Assembly (NCBI GenBank): GCA_016784445.1
Contig: JADHUR010000003.1
Coordinates: 2,590 to 66,589, forward strand
Direction of reading: 5' to 3'
Length of the DNA stretch: 64,000 bases
Origin: Patescibacteria group bacterium
GTDB lineage: Bacteria > Patescibacteriota > Patescibacteriia > UBA1558
Shown here: positions 4,440-36,756 of the stretch, in pieces
Position numbering within the stretch: the stretch's first letter is position 1
Layout of the letters: each line of letters begins with the position of its first letter
Notes under the pieces: generated by a model
The model's database searches: none
Told to the model about the DNA's origin: nothing
Seen by the model: only the letters and a program-made list of their open reading frames with translations
Program-made: the position numbers and the translations under genes

Positions 4440-4823
4440 CTATGTCAAGTGCTTAAGTGCCTTAGATTTCTGTGAAATAGCAAATATTCCTAAGATTGTG
4501 ATATATGTTGCTGTGAATTCAGATTGAAGTTGATATTGGTGATTGAATATGGCTGTAATAATCATAGCTACAATTACTATGGTCCAGATTATTACATATA
4601 TTTCTCCATAATGTTTAGATATATATCCTTTATTGCGCCAACGAGCGATTTCTTTACTACCAACATATATTCCTAATATAGAGGCATAAATTACAGCAAT
4701 AGCACTTAAAGTGCCATTAAATTGATTTGGGTAAAAGAACGCAAATACAAAAACTAATAAAGTTAGCCAAGACCAAAAGTTAGTAAAATATTTCCAGAAG
4801 GATAAATTATTTATTTCTGCCAT
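4440..4823 (-). CDS. Integral membrane protein, function unknown
   Basis: 127 aa with four predicted hydrophobic helices. First gene of the minus-strand block, 36 bp from the divergent tag gene. Confidence 0.4.
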   Translation of the reverse strand: MAEINNLSFWKYFTNFWSWLTLLVFVFAFFYPNQFNGTLSAIAVIYASILGIYVGSKEIARWRNKGYISKHYGEIYVIIWTIVIVAMIITAIFNHQYQLQSEFTATYITILGIFAISQKSKALKHLT

Positions 4824-7813: not shown

Positions 7814-8634
7814 TGGATATAATTGAAGTACAATTTACACCTTGGGATCAGATATATTATTTTTCTTATCCCGAGCAAACAGATCATAGTAGAGTTGTGA
7901 TGGGTAATAAGCTAGTTGTAAAGACATCTATTGGTCTTGAACTTGGCACTATTGTAGGTTTGAAGAAACTTAAGGATGAAGAGGTGAAAGCTTTAGAATC
8001 TAAAGATCAACCAGTCGTGCCATTTATTAGAGTTGCTAATGATGATGATATTGCACAAGATGCAAAATCTAATACAGATAATGCTAGTCGGGTTAAATAT
8101 TGTCAGGGGCAAGTTAAGAAACATAAATTAACAATGAAATTAGTAGATTGTCACTGTTCTTTTGATAATAATCGTATTACATTTGCCTTTATTGCAGATG
8201 GTAGAGTAGATTTTAGAGATCTTGTTAAGGAATTAACAAAGCATTTTAAGAAAACCATTCGTTTGCAACAATTAGGTGTTAGAGATGAAGCTAAACTTAC
8301 TGGAGATTTCGGATCATGTGGTTTAAAATTATGTTGCCAGGGGCATTTAAAATCACTTGGAAATGTATCTACTGAATTTGCAAAAGATCAGATGATAGCA
8401 CATAGAGGAAGCGATAGACTATCAGGTCAATGTGGAAGACTTAAATGTTGCCTTGCCTATGAAGAAGATTTTTATAGAGAAGAATTAAAGAATTACCCAA
8501 AGATTGGTGAAAAAGTTAAGACAAAGAGTGGCACGGGTTATGTAATTGGACTTAATATTTTAAGTAAAACCTTTGATGTTAGAATTAAGGATGACAAAAA
8601 AGGTGATGCCATTGTTCAAGTAGATATTAAATAG
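7813..8634 (+). CDS. ricT: PSP1 C-terminal domain protein, RicT/YaaT homologue
   Basis: MKLVDCHCSFDNNRITFAFIADGRVDFRDLVKEL..IRLQQLGVRDEAK..CGLKLCC..AKDQ..SGQCGRLKCCLAYEE closely parallels B. subtilis YaaT (MKLVDVEYTFDNNKLLFYFTADGRVDFRELVK..CGRLMCCLKYE). Start overlaps the pyrH stop (ATGA). Confidence 0.7.
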   Translation: MDIIEVQFTPWDQIYYFSYPEQTDHSRVVMGNKLVVKTSIGLELGTIVGLKKLKDEEVKALESKDQPVVPFIRVANDDDIAQDAKSNTDNASRVKYCQGQVKKHKLTMKLVDCHCSFDNNRITFAFIADGRVDFRDLVKELTKHFKKTIRLQQLGVRDEAKLTGDFGSCGLKLCCQGHLKSLGNVSTEFAKDQMIAHRGSDRLSGQCGRLKCCLAYEEDFYREELKNYPKIGEKVKTKSGTGYVIGLNILSKTFDVRIKDDKKGDAIVQVDIK

Positions 8635-8741
8635 ACTTATATATAAAGGCTACTATTGTTTAAATAGTGGTTTTTTGTTTGACTTTTTTTATTTCCTTAA
8701 AAAAGCTATAATAGATGCAAGATAAATAATATATTACTTAT

Positions 8742-9752
8742 ATGGTTAAAAACAATAAGATTAGAGTAGCTATAAATGGTTTTGGTAGAGTAGGTAGAGC
8801 TGCTTTTAAAGTATTACTTGAAAAGAGGAATATGGAAGTGGTAGCTATTAATGATTTAACAGATGCTGAAACTTTAGCTCATTTATTGAATTATGATACT
8901 ACTTATGGAGTTTCAATGAAAAAGATTAGTTCAACTACTAGTGATATAGTAGTAAATGGTAAGCATTATCCAGTATTAGCTGTAAAAGAACCAACTAAGC
9001 TTCCTTGGAAGAAAATGAAAGTAGATATAGTTTTAGAATGTACCGGTATTTTTAGAACTAGGGAGTTGGCAGGTAAGCATAATAAAGCAGGTGCTAAGAA
9101 AGTTATAATTTCTGCACCAGCTAAAGGTGATGGTGTGGGCACCTTTGTATTGGGTGTAAATGAGAATAGTTATGGTAATGAAAAGGTCATCAACAATGCA
9201 TCATGTACTACTAATTGTGTAGCACCAGTAGCGCAAGTTATGCATAGTAATTTTAAAGTATTAAAAGCTATGATGACGACTATTCACTCATATACAGCTG
9301 ACCAAAGATTACAAGATGCGCCACATAAAGATTTAAGAAGAGCAAGAGCAGCTGCTCAAAATATTGTACCAACAACAACAGGAGCAGCTATTGCTACCAC
9401 AGAAACTATTCCAGAACTTAAAGGTATATTTGATGGTATGGCTATTAGAGTACCAACTATTAATGGCTCATTATCTGACTTTACATTTTTAGTAAATAAG
9501 GATGTAACTGTAGATCAGGTAAATAATGCGATGATAAAAGCAAGTAAATCTCCAAGATTAAAAAATATCTTAGAAGTTACAAATGAGCCAATAGTTTCTT
9601 CCGATATTATTGGTAATCCAGCATCAGCAATTGTAGATTTGAGTTTAACACAAGTTGTTGATGGTAATATGGTAAAGGTTGTAGTTTGGTATGATAATGA
9701 ATGGGGTTATGCAAATCGCTTAGTTGAAATGATTAATCAAGTGAATAAATAA
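8742..9752 (+). CDS. gap: Glyceraldehyde-3-phosphate dehydrogenase
   Basis: NAD-binding INGFGRVGR and the catalytic ASCTTNCVAP motif. 336 aa. Confidence 0.9.
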   Translation: MVKNNKIRVAINGFGRVGRAAFKVLLEKRNMEVVAINDLTDAETLAHLLNYDTTYGVSMKKISSTTSDIVVNGKHYPVLAVKEPTKLPWKKMKVDIVLECTGIFRTRELAGKHNKAGAKKVIISAPAKGDGVGTFVLGVNENSYGNEKVINNASCTTNCVAPVAQVMHSNFKVLKAMMTTIHSYTADQRLQDAPHKDLRRARAAAQNIVPTTTGAAIATTETIPELKGIFDGMAIRVPTINGSLSDFTFLVNKDVTVDQVNNAMIKASKSPRLKNILEVTNEPIVSSDIIGNPASAIVDLSLTQVVDGNMVKVVVWYDNEWGYANRLVEMINQVNK

Positions 9753-30004: not shown

Positions 30005-31146
30005 AGCAAATATTATACATACTGAGTTTTTTAATTCTACTATTACCGGGAGTAGTTTTTGCAGTAGATTATGATTTGTCTGTTAGTAGTTCAGATATAT
30101 CTTTTTCAGAGAATCTTTTAATCGCAGGCGATACTGTCCGTATATATGCAACTGTACATAATGTAGGTTCTCAGGATGTTCGTGGGTATATAACTTTCTT
30201 TCAAGGTTCTGCTGTTATTGATGATTCGCAAATATTATCTATTAGACCTGGAAGTAAATCTGATGCTTGGGTAGATTTTGTAGTACCAAGTAGCGAGTTC
30301 AATATTTTAGCTCGTATACAAGGTACAACACCAGCAGATCAGAACTCAAATAATGATCAAGCATTAACAGCTTTAATAAGACCAGATATAGATACAGATA
30401 GAGATGGTATTGCTAATGCAATAGATCCTGATGATGATAATGATGGCCTAACAGATATTCAAGAAAGAGCGGGAGGCACTGATCCATTAAAGGTAGATAC
30501 AGATGATGATGGTTCAAATGATAAAGTAGATATTTTTCCATTAGATCCTAATGAGAAGATGGATTCAGATAATGATGGTATTGGTAATAATGCGGACCCA
30601 GATGATGATAATGATGGACTTACAGATATAGAGGAGGATATTAATGGAACAGATCCATTAAAGGCAGATACAGACGGTGATGGAGTAAATGATAAGGAAG
30701 ATAATTATCCACTAGATTCTAGTCGCTTTGAAATTGCTAGAGATATTTTTGAACCAACAGATAATGAAGATGAAGATATTCAAGAGGTAGAAACTGGTAA
30801 TGAAACATTACTAGATATTATAAGTGATGAGGTGGATAAGATTAAAGATAGTGATTCTGATGATTTAATCAAACATGAAAAAGTATTATCTATTGATGGT
30901 CCAAAAGTAGATGAAAGTAATGAAAATAATAATATCTTAGATTTAATTACTAATTGGTGGTTTTGGTTAACAATTAGTGGTATAATTCTATTAATAATAG
31001 TTGTTTACTATATCTATATAATCATTGTTAATCGCAATGTCGAAGGATTTGAAGAAACAATGCCAATATTAAAAGAAGCTAAAAAAGTTAAATCTAATAG
31101 AGAACCGGAAATATTAGATTTACGTAAAATTAAAAGAAAAAAGTGA
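30001..31146 (+). CDS. Surface protein with CARDB-like N-domain, thrombospondin type-3-like Ca-binding repeats and C-terminal TM anchor
   Basis: Signal peptide. [22 protein letters not shown] and [22 protein letters not shown] (DxDxDG repeats). C-terminal [27 protein letters not shown] plus a basic tail. Confidence 0.5.
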
Positions 31147-32186
31147 GGGAACTTCTAACAGGAAATGATGTAGTAGTAAGAGCCGCATTGAATGCGGGTG
31201 CTTTGGGTTATGCGGGTTATCCAATAACGCCAACTACAGAAATAATGACTGCCTGGAATAGCGCCTCTATTAAAGATAAGAATTTGAGGTTTTTACAAAC
31301 AGAAGATGAAATGTCTGCTGGCTTTGTAACCATTGGTATGATTATGGGAGGCCTTAAAGCTTTTACAGCTACCGGAGGTCCTGGTAATGTACTGATGCAA
31401 GATCCTCTTAATATGGTAGAAAATATGCGTATCCCTTTTGTTGCTGTCATTGGTCAAAGAGGTGGACCATCCACTGGTTCTGTCATATATTCGCAGCAGG
31501 AAGTCATTTTAACAGGCTGGGGAGGTAATTCTGAAGGATATAGAGTTGTATACTCACCAATGAATATACAAGAGCTTTATGATTATACAATTAAAGCATT
31601 TAATACTGCTTGGACATATAGATTCCCAACACTTGTTCTAACTGATGGTTATGTTGTTAAAACCAGGCAAGAAGTTAATATATATAAACCAAAGAAAATA
31701 GTTAAATCATATCCATTATTATTAAAGTCTGAAAAACGTAATCCAAAGAAAGAATCAAATTATGTAAATTTATCAAATACCTTTGTTACTGAAGAAGAAG
31801 CATTTGAAGCAAATAAAGTATTAATGGATGACTTAATGAAAATGAAACCTAAAGTTGTTGAGTCAGAACTATATAAGAAGGGGAGTATTAATACCTTAGT
31901 GATTGCTCATGGTCTTGTTGCTGGAGCTGTTAAAGAAGCTATTAATACAGATGGTAAGAAAATGAAATTTGGCATGCTAAGACCAATTACTTTAAATCCA
32001 TTTCCAGATATTGCTTTAAAGAAGGCATTAAAAGGAATTAAGAAAATTATTATTGTAGAATCAGCTCATAATCAGCTTCTAAAACTTGTTAAAGAAGCTC
32101 TTTATGGTTTAAATATTCCAATTAAACATTATGGTCGACCAGGCCTTGGTGTTACACCTGAAGAAATATTAAAATTAATTAAATAA
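31143..32186 (+). CDS. porA: 2-oxoacid:ferredoxin oxidoreductase alpha subunit (POR/VOR type)
   Basis: GTG start. [28 protein letters not shown] is the conserved N-terminal core of OFOR alpha subunits. Confidence 0.75.
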
Positions 32187-32188
32187 TT

Positions 32189-32677
32189 ATGAAATTTAAT
32201 AACAAAGGTTTTACATTATTAGAGCTATTAGTGGTAATAGCCATCATTGGACTTTTAAGTACTATTGCTGTTACGTCTTTGAATTCTGCTAGGGTAAAGG
32301 CAAGGGATACAAAACGTCTTGGTGATATGAAAGCTATTCAAACAGCGCAAGAATTTTACTTTGATGAAAATAATACTTATGGATGTTTGGTTAAAGGAGC
32401 TGTTAGTGCATGTAGTGACTTAGATAATTATATGAATCTTGATACTGTTAAGGATGGAAGATGGGCTGATGGTGATAAATGTACCAATACTACAGTGGTA
32501 GCGGGATATGCAGTAACGGATTGCGATTATGCCTTTGCTGTTCCTAATGCAGGGGAAGGTTATAAAGTAGTTTTTTATTTAGAGGGTGCATCTAGTGCCG
32601 GAAATACAGCAGCAACTTTGTGTGGCGTGACGGCTCAAGGTCTTCAATGTCCAGTTGTAGCATATGTAGCACCATAA
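32189..32677 (+). CDS. Type IV pilin-like protein embedded in the OFOR operon
   Basis: NNKG|FTLLELLVVIAIIGLLSTIAV, then ARVKARDTKRLGDMKAIQTAQEFYF (pseudopilin alpha1 signature). Four Cys in the head domain. Confidence 0.7.
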   Translation: MKFNNKGFTLLELLVVIAIIGLLSTIAVTSLNSARVKARDTKRLGDMKAIQTAQEFYFDENNTYGCLVKGAVSACSDLDNYMNLDTVKDGRWADGDKCTNTTVVAGYAVTDCDYAFAVPNAGEGYKVVFYLEGASSAGNTAATLCGVTAQGLQCPVVAYVAP

Positions 32678-32690
32678 TAATTAAATTTAA

Positions 32691-33440
32691 ATGACAAATT
32701 TAAAAATCCCAAAATGTTGGAAAGTTTCATCTAAACCACATAATTTCTGTGCTGGTTGTGGTTATCCTTTAATGTATAAAGCATTAGGATACAATATAGA
32801 TGAACTTAAAATTCAGAATAATACCTTTGTTGGGTTAGATATTGGTTGTGCTTTGCTTTCTTGGGATTTCTTAAATGTAGATACTATGCAAACCCATCAT
32901 GGTAGAACTATACCAGTTGTTGTTGGGCTTAAGAAAACTAAGCCTAAAGCAGTAGGCATTGCAATAGTTGGAGATGGTGGTGGTTATGCAATTGGAGCAC
33001 AGCATTTAATTAATGCACGTATGCGTAATGAACCTATTACGGTAATTGTTATCAATAATGCTGTATATGGCATGACAGGTGGTCAAGAGGCACCAACCTC
33101 ATTACCAGGCCAAAAGACATCTACAACAGTAGCTGGGGCAGATTCACACCTTATACAAGGTCCTAGAATGTTATCTGAGATGCTGGATGAGGAGGTATAT
33201 ATTGCAAGAACTTCAGTAGATAATCCGGTACAAATGAAAAACTATATCCGTAAAGCCTTAGAGTGGCAAATAAATAATAATGGATTCTCACTGGTTGAAG
33301 TATTATCTTTTTGTCCAACTAATTGGCATACAGATGCTAAGGAAACAAGAGAGTTTTTAAATAGAATGAAAAAGCAGTATCCAGTCGGTGAATTTAAAGC
33401 TGCAAAACGTAAACCTAAAGAAGATGCATCACTTGAATAG
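32691..33440 (+). CDS. porB: 2-oxoacid:ferredoxin oxidoreductase beta subunit (TPP-binding)
   Basis: FCAGCGYP.., VGDGGGYAIGAQHLINA.., INNAVYGMTGGQ TPP-binding motifs. Confidence 0.8.
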   Translation: MTNLKIPKCWKVSSKPHNFCAGCGYPLMYKALGYNIDELKIQNNTFVGLDIGCALLSWDFLNVDTMQTHHGRTIPVVVGLKKTKPKAVGIAIVGDGGGYAIGAQHLINARMRNEPITVIVINNAVYGMTGGQEAPTSLPGQKTSTTVAGADSHLIQGPRMLSEMLDEEVYIARTSVDNPVQMKNYIRKALEWQINNNGFSLVEVLSFCPTNWHTDAKETREFLNRMKKQYPVGEFKAAKRKPKEDASLE

Positions 33441-34256: not shown

Positions 34257-34267
34257 CTAAGTAAATA

Positions 34268-34296
34268 TTGACAGTACTTAGCGAGGTGCTAAACTA
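34268..34296 (+). promoter_or_regulatory. Candidate promoter for the small peptide gene (TTGACA-16-TAAACT)
   Basis: Consensus -35 TTGACA at 34268-73. Weaker -10. Confidence 0.35.
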
Positions 34297-34363
34297 AAAT
34301 TAGCTTATTAAAAAATTAATATTGTTTATTAGAATAGTACATATCCAAGAAAGGTGACTCAAC

Positions 34364-34453
34364 ATGGATAAGAAGAAAAAAAAGACCGCAAAACAGGTCA
34401 AAAAACGCGTAAAAGTACGCATTGGTAAGGGTAGTTGCAGTATTTGTGATTAA
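34364..34453 (+). CDS. Candidate RiPP precursor peptide (29 aa, Lys-rich leader, C-terminal GSCSICD)
   Basis: ATG preceded by aaaggtga SD. Translates to MDKKKKKTAKQVKKRVKVRIGKGSCSICD*. Sits 70 nt upstream of a radical-SAM/SPASM enzyme, with a hairpin between them. Shorter than the 60-aa cutoff of the ORF track. Confidence 0.5.
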   Translation: MDKKKKKTAKQVKKRVKVRIGKGSCSICD

Positions 34454-34471
34454 CTCTTAAGGAACAAAAGA

Positions 34472-34499
34472 GGGGGAGAATCTAAGATTCTTCCCCTTT
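34472..34499 (+). terminator. Strong hairpin with weak U-tract between peptide and maturase genes (attenuator-like partial terminator)
   Basis: ggggagaatc-taa-gattcttcccc (11 bp, one G.U) followed by TTT. Confidence 0.45.
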
Positions 34500-34522
34500 A
34501 ACACTCAAAAAGGAGGGTAAAG

Positions 34523-35608
34523 ATGGATTGTCAAGAGAATACACCTCGTTTAGAGGTTGAGACTGATGAGACTATTTATGAAATAGAGTTTGGTCAAGTT
34601 CAGATTGAAATAACTGGACGATGCAATATGAGTTGTCAGCACTGCAGAGCATCACATCAGGTAAAAAGAGACATGCCGATAGAGCAGATTGTGAAAATAA
34701 TGAAATTTGCACGTCAGTTTAGCCCAAATTATAAAGAGGTTATTCTTTCGGGAGGGGAACCTTTACTTCACAATGACTTCACTAGAGTATTACAAGAAGT
34801 TCGCCATAGTGGCGGTGATTCCATAACTTTAACTACAAATGGTTACATGTTAGATGAATCACACTTGGATTCAATCCGTAGCTTAGAATTTGAACGTTTT
34901 GTTCTGTCAGTAAGTATTGATAATTTAAGGTCTTCTCTGCATGATGAGTTTCGCATGAAAGCTGGTGCATTTGATAAAGCTGTTAATGCTTTAAAGATGG
35001 TTGCTTATAGCGACATTCCACACTTAATTCCATCAATGCGTTCTACCATTCAGGCTCAGCAGATTGCCGAGATGGAGGAAATGGTCGTCTTTGCTGACAC
35101 TCTTGGTTGTAAGAGAGTATCATTTTCTGCAATTCATCCAGCCGGAAAAGCAATAACAAGGGATGATTTGTGGATGAATGTAGAACAAAAACGTTCTTTT
35201 TTGAAGGAGGTTTATCGATTGAAAGAAGTATTTCCTCATATTAATGTTACAACCAATGATCCTCTTAAATGCTTGCTCCGAGGCAAGAGTGATCTTGGAC
35301 ATTCAGAGGAATTAGTTTTTGATGGTTGCGGTGCTGCAGCAATAACATTTAATGTGGATTGCAGTGGTAACATGACCCCATGTGCATTACTCAATATTCC
35401 AATGATGAATACTTTTGCCTTAACGATTGAGGAAATGAATGAAGCCTATAGTAGTAGTGACATTGTTAGGAATATGCTAGAGATGAATTTAAGTGGTAAG
35501 TGTGGTGCCTGTGAATTGAAATATCAATGTGGAGGTTGTCGTGCACGAGCACTGATTCAGAATGGAGATTATCTAGCAGAGGATTCGCACTGTTGGATTA
35601 ATGTTTAA
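34523..35608 (+). CDS. Radical SAM/SPASM-domain peptide-modifying enzyme
   Basis: CNMSCQHC (Cx3Cx2C), GGEPLL motif. C-terminal SPASM cysteines CGAAAITFNVDCSGNMTPC and CGACELKYQCGGCRARA. Strong SD aaggaggg. Confidence 0.8.
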   Translation: MDCQENTPRLEVETDETIYEIEFGQVQIEITGRCNMSCQHCRASHQVKRDMPIEQIVKIMKFARQFSPNYKEVILSGGEPLLHNDFTRVLQEVRHSGGDSITLTTNGYMLDESHLDSIRSLEFERFVLSVSIDNLRSSLHDEFRMKAGAFDKAVNALKMVAYSDIPHLIPSMRSTIQAQQIAEMEEMVVFADTLGCKRVSFSAIHPAGKAITRDDLWMNVEQKRSFLKEVYRLKEVFPHINVTTNDPLKCLLRGKSDLGHSEELVFDGCGAAAITFNVDCSGNMTPCALLNIPMMNTFALTIEEMNEAYSSSDIVRNMLEMNLSGKCGACELKYQCGGCRARALIQNGDYLAEDSHCWINV

Positions 35609-35661
35609 ATATAAGGGTTGAGCTTTCAAAAAGTTTGACCCTTATTTTTTTATTATAGTAT

Positions 35662-36144
35662 ATGATGTATAATGATTCTATGAATCAAAGTTTACAGAAT
35701 TTTATAGCAAAAAAATACATAAAACCTGGCAAGGCATTAGATCTAGGTGCTGGTCAGTTTGAAGATGTGAAAGGATTAAGTAAACTTGGGTGGAAAGCTG
35801 AAGGTGTAGATATTAATATGGGAGTTAATCTTGAAGAGTCCTTTTTATCCAAGGAGAAACCGTTTGATTTAGTTTATTCAAACTATCTCATACATAAGTT
35901 AAAAAATTTAGAAGTGTTTATCGAGACTATTTATAATAATTTAACAGAGGGTGGATATTTCTTTATACATACTTTTGATAAGTCAGATGAGAATAGTAAA
36001 TCCGAACTAACGGGAGATCTTTTAATGAAGTTGCTTATTAATAGAGGCTTTAAAGATATTAAAGTTGGGCTATTTGATAAGTATGATGATGCAGAGGGTC
36101 ATCAGCATATGCATAAAATTTTGGAAGTAACTGGTAAAAAATAG
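35662..36144 (+). CDS. Small class I SAM-dependent methyltransferase
   Basis: Motif I ALDLGAGQFEDV and motif II/III spacing. 160 aa. Same transcription unit as the rSAM gene. Confidence 0.6.
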   Translation: MMYNDSMNQSLQNFIAKKYIKPGKALDLGAGQFEDVKGLSKLGWKAEGVDINMGVNLEESFLSKEKPFDLVYSNYLIHKLKNLEVFIETIYNNLTEGGYFFIHTFDKSDENSKSELTGDLLMKLLINRGFKDIKVGLFDKYDDAEGHQHMHKILEVTGKK

Positions 36145-36294
36145 TATCAGTGAAAATAAATTATATTGTAGAAAAATCACACGATACAGAGGAGGATGAG
36201 GAGTATTTACTTAAATTGAAGGTAATGTTGGAAAAATTAGAAGAATTAGTTGAAAAATAGTGAAGTTTATAAATACTTAATATCCTGGTATAAT

Positions 36295-36324: not shown

Positions 36325-36756
36325 ATGAACAATTTGGAAAAGCCTAAAATGAATAAGGAAATATATGTTGATCCTCGTCACGAGGAGCACGCTTTTGATT
36401 TACCATTTTGGCGGGATAATAAAAAGCTATGGGCTTTGGAGGTTCCAGTTGAGAGTATGGATATCAGTGAATTAATATGGATGTTAGATATACCTCATTG
36501 GGAAGATAAAGAAGGTAATATTGTCATTAAGCCGCAGGATGTTATAGATAATCCAGACAACTATCCATTTCATAAAGATAAGATTAATGAATGCGATACG
36601 TCATATCCAATAGATATTATGAAAAATAAATTGAGTGAGTGGAGAATACTAGACGGACTTCATCGTTATGTGAAATTGATAATGGAGGGTATAACAACAA
36701 TTAAAGTAAGGAAAATTCCACCTGAGATGATTCATCTAACAGCTAAAGAAAAGTAA
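36325..36756 (+). CDS. Hypothetical protein with ParB/Srx-like DGxHR motif
   Basis: 143 aa. ..SEWRILDGLHRYVKLIMEG.. resembles the DG(H/x)HR catalytic motif of ParB-like nuclease/sulfiredoxin folds. Confidence 0.3.
   Translation: MNNLEKPKMNKEIYVDPRHEEHAFDLPFWRDNKKLWALEVPVESMDISELIWMLDIPHWEDKEGNIVIKPQDVIDNPDNYPFHKDKINECDTSYPIDIMKNKLSEWRILDGLHRYVKLIMEGITTIKVRKIPPEMIHLTAKEK

Follow-up and report, generated by a model that had tools for sequence, protein, structure and literature searches.

Several described systems pair a small peptide with a radical S-adenosylmethionine (SAM) enzyme of the SPASM type. In the PapA/PapB (freyrasin) system of Paenibacillus, such an enzyme acts on a Cys-containing peptide whose natural motif is Cys-X3-Asp/Glu, the Cys lying N-terminal to the acid and the thioether being made to the carbon that adjoins the carboxylate; PapB also uses C-terminal carboxylates. 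The SCIFF systems of Clostridia (CteA/CteB, Tte1186a/Tte1186) are minimal pairs of peptide and enzyme with no exporter, in which the peptide is highly conserved throughout the lineage, a distribution that was argued to speak against an antimicrobial role. In mycofactocin (MftA/MftC) and PQQ (PqqA/PqqE) biosynthesis, the sequence modified by a radical SAM/SPASM enzyme is a short core of a small peptide, which does not vary and is situated at the C-terminus or close to it, and the product is conserved and housekeeping-like rather than a variable antibiotic. Here we examine a locus that shares features with each of these systems. It lies in a 64,000-nt stretch of DNA, hereafter the window, from a Patescibacteria group bacterium (UBA1558; assembly GCA_016784445.1, contig JADHUR010000003.1, positions 2,590–66,589, forward strand), and it consists of genes for a 29-residue peptide, a radical SAM/SPASM enzyme and a small SAM-dependent methyltransferase. 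Peptide and enzyme, with or without the methyltransferase, form a real cassette that is found at approximately 100 loci of ultra-small symbiotic bacteria and has apparently not been described as a peptide modification system. It is, in our assessment, probably a self-contained cassette resembling those for peptides that are made by ribosomes and modified after translation (RiPPs), specific to the candidate phyla radiation (CPR)/Patescibacteria and present in a reduced version in some DPANN archaea, and there is a good likelihood that the peptide and the enzyme are a substrate and its maturase.

A preliminary description, made from the window sequence, had proposed a RiPP locus here. The open reading frame (ORF), Shine-Dalgarno sequence, hairpin with weak T-tract, radical SAM motifs and methyltransferase on which it was based are all present in the window, where the locus has the following layout:

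34364–34453 (+): precursor-like peptide gene, 29 aa; a 90-nt ORF, MDKKKKKTAKQVKKRVKVRIGKGSCSICD, with a variable Lys-rich N-terminus and a conserved C-terminal KVRIGKGSCSICD-stop
34523–35608 (+): radical SAM/SPASM enzyme, 361 aa; no RiPP recognition element (RRE); conserved acidic N-terminal β-hairpin at residues ~9–25 (RLEVETDETIYEIEFGQ)
35662–36144 (+): small class-I SAM methyltransferase, ORF as listed 160 aa; PF13489
34268–34295 (+): candidate sigma-70-like promoter, TTGACA-16 nt-TAAACT with extended TG; 10/12 matches
34350–34357 (+): Shine-Dalgarno sequence of the peptide gene, AAAGGTGA, 6 nt before the ATG
34469–34499 (+): 14-bp G-rich hairpin with a 3-nt loop and a weak T-tract, between the peptide and enzyme genes
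34512–34516 (+): Shine-Dalgarno sequence of the enzyme gene, GGAGG; GGAGG also lies 3′ of the hairpin in CPR loci
35611–35645 (+): terminator-like hairpin of 16 pairs and a T-run, with TTTTTTATTA after the pairs, between the enzyme and methyltransferase genes

The peptide gene is real and translated under selection, and both the linkage of peptide, enzyme and methyltransferase and the class of the enzyme are established. The preliminary description had staked its reading on the presence of a conserved small ORF ending in C-x-x-C-D upstream of homologous enzyme genes. Close homologues of the enzyme number more than 120 at 57–74% identity, all from metagenome-assembled genomes labelled Patescibacteria/CPR or DPANN. 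In 16 of 16 species-representative genome loci with upstream DNA, the enzyme gene is closely preceded, in the same orientation, by a small ORF ending (K/R)(V/I)xVRIGKGSC(S/C/A)ICD-stop, and a cognate peptide adjoins the orthologous enzyme in approximately 69 of the 70 metagenome loci (from a further set of 80) that have at least 150 nt of upstream sequence. The strict pattern was matched in 60 of these 70; nine of the other ten hold divergent versions (GKGACGICS, MGKGACTCCCQY, SGKHACGRCSD, one downstream-encoded copy and a sub-branch with C-terminal additions), and the last locus is truncated. Recurrence of peptide and enzyme in essentially all orthologous loci is far beyond chance and supports the RiPP-like reading. 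The codons of the core, R-I-G-K-G-S-C-x-I-C-D-stop, show 731 synonymous and 75 non-synonymous pairwise differences, indicating strong purifying selection; the non-synonymous changes are confined to the ‘x’ position, while wobble positions are saturated, and the position of the stop is fixed even though TAA, TAG and TGA are all used. A Shine-Dalgarno sequence (mostly AAAGGAGG) precedes 44 of 44 distinct bacterial peptide genes and none of seven of archaeal type. By adjacency, purifying selection and Shine-Dalgarno sequence, the locus thus shows the linkage of a candidate ribosomal precursor to its putative modifying enzyme by which RiPP systems are recognized. The competing explanation, a chance ORF next to a gene for a protein maturase resembling the anaerobic sulfatase-maturating enzyme (anSME), is rejected on the grounds of codon selection, the Shine-Dalgarno sequence, the hairpin and the charge co-variation described below.

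Conservation is restricted to the last 12–13 residues of the peptide, in which nearly all versions have two Cys residues. Orthologues range from 19 to 50 residues (median 27) and from −10 to +14 in net charge. Their N-terminus differs widely in length and composition, and the poly-Lys leader noted in the preliminary description is not shared by the whole family, in which the N-terminus is not always basic. In the window, the Lys-rich start of the gene (34372–34386, AAGAAGAAAAAAAAG) includes an A8 run; homopolymer A runs are prone to slippage. Each locus has one copy of the peptide gene, and the 64-kb window holds no other. The peptide had been called unannotated, and its exact sequence is indeed absent from a collection of 15 billion proteins, while both of its neighbour genes are annotated (MBL7022065.1, MBL7022066.1). 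It has no Pfam or NCBIfam match, the SCIFF peptide model TIGR03973 included, and those of its relatives that have been called are unnamed or ‘hypothetical’ and lack a Pfam domain. A profile of the orthologues, used in an exhaustive hidden Markov model (HMM) search of 1.8 billion representative proteins, recovered the motif only in stand-alone peptides of 28–61 residues, and on this basis we reject the idea that it is the tail of a larger protein or of an enzyme fusion; a single 833-residue match aligns to the Lys-rich part of the profile only, in eight repeated stretches. At locus L097 the peptide gene (4664–4804, + strand, ending KAGQDYCDRCS) lies downstream of an enzyme that is 45% identical, making the linkage independent of an upstream position. 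In the sub-branch formed by L067, L071 and L079 the peptide runs 4–8 residues past Cys-Asp (e.g. ending CRTCDSNGPPTK). L095 is also listed among the divergent cassette variants.

The class of the enzyme was confirmed by profile search, as the preliminary description had anticipated: it passes both PF04055 (77.3 bits against a threshold of 29.5) and TIGR04085, the SPASM model (34.2 bits against a cutoff of 27, residues 235–361). Its C34-x3-C38-x2-C41 motif is invariant across 25 homologues, and GGEPLL is present. Eight further Cys residues are invariant (C250, C269, C287, C327, C330, C336, C339 and C357), arranged as C269-x12-G282-x4-C287, C327-x2-C330-x5-C336-x2-C339 and C357, plus C250; SPASM domains are defined by CX9-15GX4C ... 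CX2CX5CX3C ... C, from which the enzyme departs in having x2 rather than x3 in the last pair. With these residues the enzyme can fully ligate two auxiliary clusters, as anSME does. In an AlphaFold2 (AF2) model of the enzyme (pLDDT 91), approximately 25 residues precede the radical SAM core, and because they form only two short β-strands before the barrel, we conclude that there is no RRE. PF05402 (PqqD-like) found no match in the enzyme, and no discrete RRE recurs in the neighbourhoods of 98 loci, for which all ORFs were clustered. The top folds in a Foldseek search were SuiB (TM 0.76), SkfB, CteB, anSME and PqqE, at 17–21% identity. All are peptide or protein maturases, yet the enzyme belongs to none of their families. 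Scores on curated equivalog models likewise all fall below cutoff: GeoRSP (TIGR04303) 146 of 400 bits, NirJ2 (TIGR04055) 137.6 of 500, AhbD (TIGR04545) 126.2 of 500, PapB (NF047865) 74.2 of 340, MftC (TIGR03962) 74.2 of 265 and PqqE 64 of 381. The SCIFF maturase model, TIGR03974, gave 15.5 bits against a cutoff of 425, on the SPASM half, and was outside the top 25 full-length matches. Proteins from loci L018–L024 (Gallionellaceae and others), which are approximately 25% identical over the radical SAM core only, are unrelated radical SAM enzymes and were set aside. An anti-phage defence system was also considered and rejected, PADLOC having returned only generic similarity of the radical SAM core to viperins. 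One Patescibacteria contig (L010) encodes a second radical SAM protein (7885–9045, + strand, 387 aa, PF04055) approximately 2.8 kb downstream of the cassette, following a double response-regulator gene; it clusters with the cassette enzyme by BLAST.

Set beside the described systems, the cassette resembles each in some respects and departs from it in others. PapB has an RRE and acts on a peptide whose leader contains a conserved Asn, and PapA carries six motifs where the cassette peptide has one; in addition, that system belongs to Paenibacillus rather than CPR/DPANN and has no counterpart of the methyltransferase. CteB is among the nearest folds of the enzyme, but it has an N-terminal RRE and comes from a lineage, the Clostridia, distinct from the CPR, and SCIFF peptides have six Cys in approximately 45 residues against two in the cassette peptide. 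The enzyme is like anSME in its compact size (~360–370 aa), its lack of an RRE, its eight SPASM Cys residues with the spacing C-x2-C-x5-C-x2/3-C...C, and in that anSME acts on Cys. It differs from anSME in sequence (17–18% identity) and in its genetically coupled small peptide; the anSME substrate motif C/S-x-P/A-x-R is not present in the core S-C-x-I-C-D, and no linked sulfatase was found in the 98 loci. Unlike the mycofactocin and PQQ systems, the cassette has neither an RRE chaperone (MftB/PqqD) nor a peptidase nor an oxidoreductase for later tailoring, and a Cys-based core takes the place of their Val-Tyr or Glu-Tyr chemistry; MftA ends in Gly-Val-Tyr, whereas cassette peptides end in C-D/N/S. 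The GeoRSP/NirJ2/AhbD group gave the enzyme its highest full-length curated scores and also consists of SPASM enzymes without an RRE, but the CPR lack the tetrapyrrole context of NirJ/AhbD, and no GeoRSP companion genes were found in the 98 loci.

Two regularities in the peptides bear on how they may be recognized and modified. The first concerns charge. The N-terminal hairpin of the enzyme is nearly invariant (RLEVETEDxIYEIEFGQ), and across 42 distinct pairs its net charge is inversely correlated with that of the peptide strand, taken as the seven residues before I-G (Spearman rho = −0.62); a non-acidic hairpin (net 0 to +1) occurs in three enzymes, and these are the partners of the three peptides whose strand is net neutral. 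This suggests that direct docking of strand to hairpin replaces an RRE. The second regularity is a carboxylate at the fourth position after the first Cys (Cys1+4), which is present in 71 of 75 distinct peptides. In 49 it belongs to a terminal Asp/Glu (C-x-x-C-D/E), in 19 the terminal residue is Asn, Ser or Arg and offers its α-carboxylate only, and in three there is an internal Asp, so that PapB's own Cys-X3-Asp/Glu motif occurs terminally in 49 peptides and internally in three. A non-acidic residue at Cys1+4 is always the last residue (19/19), and peptides that continue beyond this position have Asp there (3/3); the core is at the peptide C-terminus in 68 of the 75. Since PapB pairs a thiol with a carboxylate, the rule fits a thioether of the PapB/ranthipeptide Cys-X3-Asp type: the cassette core C-x-x-C-D is literally C-X3-D, and PapB's use of C-terminal carboxylates matches the cassette peptides that end in Asn, Ser or Arg. 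Known ranthipeptide acceptors resemble Asp, Asn and Ser. The Cys-to-Asp thioether raised in the preliminary description thereby gains indirect support, and the chemistry that we favour, albeit tentatively, is one thioether of the ranthipeptide type close to the C-terminus, with methylation as the next step.

We propose that the radical SAM/SPASM enzyme, which lacks an RRE, acts on the ribosomally made peptide of 19–50 residues that is encoded next to it. The conserved amphipathic strand of the peptide, (K/R)-V-(K/R)-V-R-I-G-K-G, would dock on the acidic N-terminal β-hairpin of the enzyme (LEVETE..IYEIEF), so that S-C-x-I-C-D, at the C-terminus, would reach into the active site. The 5′-deoxyadenosyl radical would then abstract hydrogen at the carbon beside the Cys1+4 carboxylate (Asp Cβ, or the C-terminal residue), and formation of a C–S bond to a Cys thiol would close a Cys-X3-Asp ring such as PapB makes. 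A methyl group would subsequently be added, in the majority of bacterial versions, by the small methyltransferase dedicated to the cassette. Substrate status, docking mode, thioether, methylation and biological role are all things we infer here. Several points weigh against the scheme. The statistics of the carboxylate rule and of the charge co-variation both ignore shared ancestry, and the three peptides with an internal Asp come from no more than about two independent lineages. The best HMM matches of the enzyme are GeoRSP, NirJ2 and AhbD, all far below cutoff, and sequence similarity therefore does not indicate thioether chemistry. The atom that the methyltransferase modifies cannot be inferred from its fold, whose structural neighbours methylate O, N, S or Te, and the gene is missing from about one-third of loci, including all those of archaeal type, which implies that the core function does not depend on methylation. 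Finally, the absence from the cassette of both an RRE and a leader peptidase, across the 98 loci, is unusual for a RiPP system; an RRE is typical of such systems, although not obligatory.

Some of the same observations could be accommodated if peptide and enzyme were the same substrate-enzyme pair engaged in a different chemistry, or in making a peptide-derived cofactor, which we consider rather unlikely. A sactionine (Cα) thioether, a thio-oxazole, an epimerised form of the conserved Ile, a C-terminal residue that is oxidatively decarboxylated or cross-linked in the manner of MftC, or a small peptide-derived redox cofactor or metal-binding group built from the CxxC-D end would all fall under this heading. 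The leading HMM matches, which are decarboxylase-type SPASM enzymes and not PapB or SCIFF maturases, would suit it, as would a core that is invariant like those of the cofactor precursors PqqA and MftA and that is predominantly C-terminal like that of MftA; CxxC, moreover, is a classical redox and metal-binding motif. However, the 4–8 extra residues in L067, L071 and L079 argue against a chemistry that strictly needs a free C-terminus, cofactor-pathway companions (peptidase, RRE chaperone, oxidoreductase) are not recurrent in the 98 loci, and the equivalog scores that point this way are all far under cutoff. We consider it very unlikely that the peptide is instead an accessory partner of the enzyme (a CxxC metal or Fe-S mini-subunit, an electron donor or a chaperone), with the enzyme acting elsewhere. 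An invariant CxxC, the absence of leader-cleavage machinery and an enzyme that is anSME-like in size and lacks an RRE are all compatible with such a role, and charge co-variation indicates binding at most, not turnover. Yet a mere ligand would hardly explain the Cys1+4 carboxylate rule; no alternative substrate gene is conserved nearby in the 98 loci; the close structural relatives of the enzyme all act on peptide or protein substrates that are encoded nearby or bear a Cys motif; and a hairpin that would uncouple expression of peptide and enzyme suggests the excess of peptide that is typical of a substrate.

The region between the peptide and enzyme genes of the window folds with −24.6 kcal/mol (z = −6.7), and a stable hairpin occupies the same place in 52 of 53 distinct bacterial-type intergenic regions (median −24.4 kcal/mol) and in none of eight of archaeal type; its position is conserved and its sequence is not. 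A terminator scan did not score the window hairpin as an intrinsic terminator because its T-tract is weak. It probably sets a high ratio of peptide to enzyme expression. The preliminary description had called it an attenuator; archaeal-type loci do without it, and the attenuator role is putative. If the hairpin and the small ORF together formed a cis-regulatory leader, the ORF encoding an arrest peptide that controls expression of the enzyme and has no function as a product, then an upstream position in nearly all loci, a hairpin following it and conservation concentrated at the C-terminus, all of which are seen, would be accounted for; the conserved residues of arrest peptides such as TnaC are concentrated C-terminally. 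We give this possibility the slimmest chance of those considered. Archaeal-type loci retain the peptide without a hairpin, the peptide of L097 is encoded downstream of its enzyme, the enzyme gene has its own strong Shine-Dalgarno sequence, and the peptide co-varies with the protein sequence of the enzyme. Nor does the carboxylate rule have a regulatory rationale, and an Rfam search of the leader and intergenic regions returned no described RNA elements or riboswitches. The TTGACA promoter of the preliminary description can be found upstream of the peptide gene, but the region is AT-rich and has no excess of promoter-like hexamer pairs (9 against 10.5 expected in shuffled sequence), making it the weakest element of the locus. 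Terminator-like sites number 4 against 0.6 expected, and one of them, the T-run hairpin at 35611–35645 between the enzyme and methyltransferase genes, means that the methyltransferase gene may have a transcript of its own or rely on read-through.

As listed, the methyltransferase ORF encodes 160 residues; alignment with homologues places its likely true start at the ATG at 35680, which would give 154, the length of the family. It matches PF13489 (53.4 bits against a threshold of 27), and its L-D-L-G-A-G (the DxGxG SAM motif) and D50 are invariant among homologues. An AF2 model (pLDDT 95) has a generic class-I fold like those of TehB, JHAMT and BioC (TM 0.7–0.77). The homologues form a tight family of ~154 residues, labelled CPR only and found on the same contigs as the radical SAM enzyme, and their identity (44–62%) tracks the divergence of that enzyme. 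The C-terminus has an invariant D142...H147-x-H149-x-H151 (D...G-H-K-H-W-H-K), outside the standard class-I motifs, which could be a metal- or substrate-binding site. The gene lies either right after the enzyme gene or right before the peptide gene in 62 of the 98 loci. Its partnership with the other two genes, asserted in the preliminary description, is therefore a real linkage but not a universal one.

Apart from the radical SAM enzyme itself (98 loci) and this methyltransferase (62), no gene recurs substantially in the neighbourhoods: the next commonest were IleRS (7), another methyltransferase (5) and GNAT (5), and no leader peptidase, protease, transporter or exporter, immunity gene, PqqD/RRE or ATP-grasp gene was recurrent in the 98 loci. 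Upstream of the peptide gene in the window lie the α, β, γ and δ subunits of a 2-oxoacid:ferredoxin oxidoreductase (POR/OFOR). The preliminary description placed the locus directly after this operon, but the adjacency is seen in the window locus only, for which reason we regard the neighbourhood as incidental and reject a functional link, e.g. as a cofactor maturase like the radical SAM maturase of tungsten oxidoreductases. CPR graspetide clusters sometimes hold a SPASM enzyme and a methyltransferase; a connection with these was rejected as no ATP-grasp gene recurs in the loci. In the window, a type IV pilin-like gene (32189–32677, + strand, 162 aa, N-terminus MKFNNKGFTLLELLVVIAIIGLL) splits the normally contiguous oxidoreductase operon between its α (31143–32186) and β (32691–33440) subunits. 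On the 3′ side of the methyltransferase are ORFs for an acidic 36-residue protein (36150–36260, + strand) and a 143-residue protein (36325–36756, + strand), the latter with only a weak SbnI/ParB-like N-terminal match (E = 0.014); neither recurs in other loci, and both probably have nothing to do with the cassette.

A conventional secreted antimicrobial RiPP, i.e. a sactipeptide or ranthipeptide bacteriocin, is a highly improbable product of this cassette. The layout of peptide, hairpin and radical SAM/SPASM enzyme would suit one, and a cationic peptide could act on membranes. Bacteriocin cores diversify, however, whereas this core is near-invariant while the enzymes diverge to 43–57% identity; the peptide gene is single-copy, and no transporter, immunity gene or protease recurs with it in the 98 loci. 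The argument parallels that made against an antimicrobial role of SCIFF. An invariant core without export, immunity or protease genes fits a SCIFF- or cofactor-like function better than that of a typical antimicrobial RiPP, and because the core is invariant, the gene single-copy and those companion genes not recurrent, even where the enzyme has diverged to approximately 43% identity, a conserved role, in the cell or in interaction with a host, is most likely for the product, following the logic of SCIFF or mycofactocin.

The reduced version of the cassette is found in five genome loci labelled Woesearchaeota/Nanoarchaeota (L006, L007, L009, L013 and L015), which retain the peptide and the radical SAM enzyme; methyltransferase, hairpin and Shine-Dalgarno sites are all missing from them, and two of the five have a GNAT gene in place of the methyltransferase gene. 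L007 encodes an archaeal-type PheRS β subunit above cutoff, and L013 encodes a TrmB-like regulator, with a protein from the same cluster at L009. In a crude neighbour-joining tree, the three archaeal enzymes that were included form one clade nested within CPR sequences, which suggests that the cassette passed between episymbiont lineages, from CPR to DPANN. Further DPANN-labelled loci of the same type are L047, L052, L054, L056, L089 and L102, and in several DPANN-labelled loci a RimJ/RimL-like GNAT (PF13302) lies just downstream.

CPR/Patescibacteria and DPANN have tiny genomes that keep very little biosynthesis. Retention of an invariant 12-residue core in such genomes, and its presence in DPANN, imply that the cassette is likely to be important for the episymbiotic lifestyle. 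We found no paper containing ‘RIGKGSC’ and none that links SPASM/radical SAM RiPPs of this kind to Patescibacteria/CPR, and in NCBIfam release 20 no model represents the peptide and no equivalog is attained by the enzyme. Two large surveys of radical SAM RiPPs select on association with an RRE or an ABC transporter; the cassette is associated with neither, and gene calls usually omit its peptide, which explains how it could be overlooked. Enzymologists would gain from it a compact SPASM maturase that lacks an RRE and whose substrate fits recognition and core sequences into 13 residues, and students of CPR biology a conserved marker peptide that should be detectable by mass spectrometry. More speculatively, and as a proposal that we hold with low confidence, CPR and DPANN episymbionts, from two domains of life, may keep or exchange, in spite of their extremely reduced genomes, a lineage-defining, peptide-derived molecule with a thioether-locked CxxC-Asp end, made through RRE-independent recognition by the acidic β-hairpin; such a molecule could serve as a redox cofactor based on Cys, chelate a metal or take part in interaction with the host. 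If this is true, the cassette would represent a new cofactor- or effector-class product together with a new mode of leader recognition, and would go beyond another ranthipeptide.

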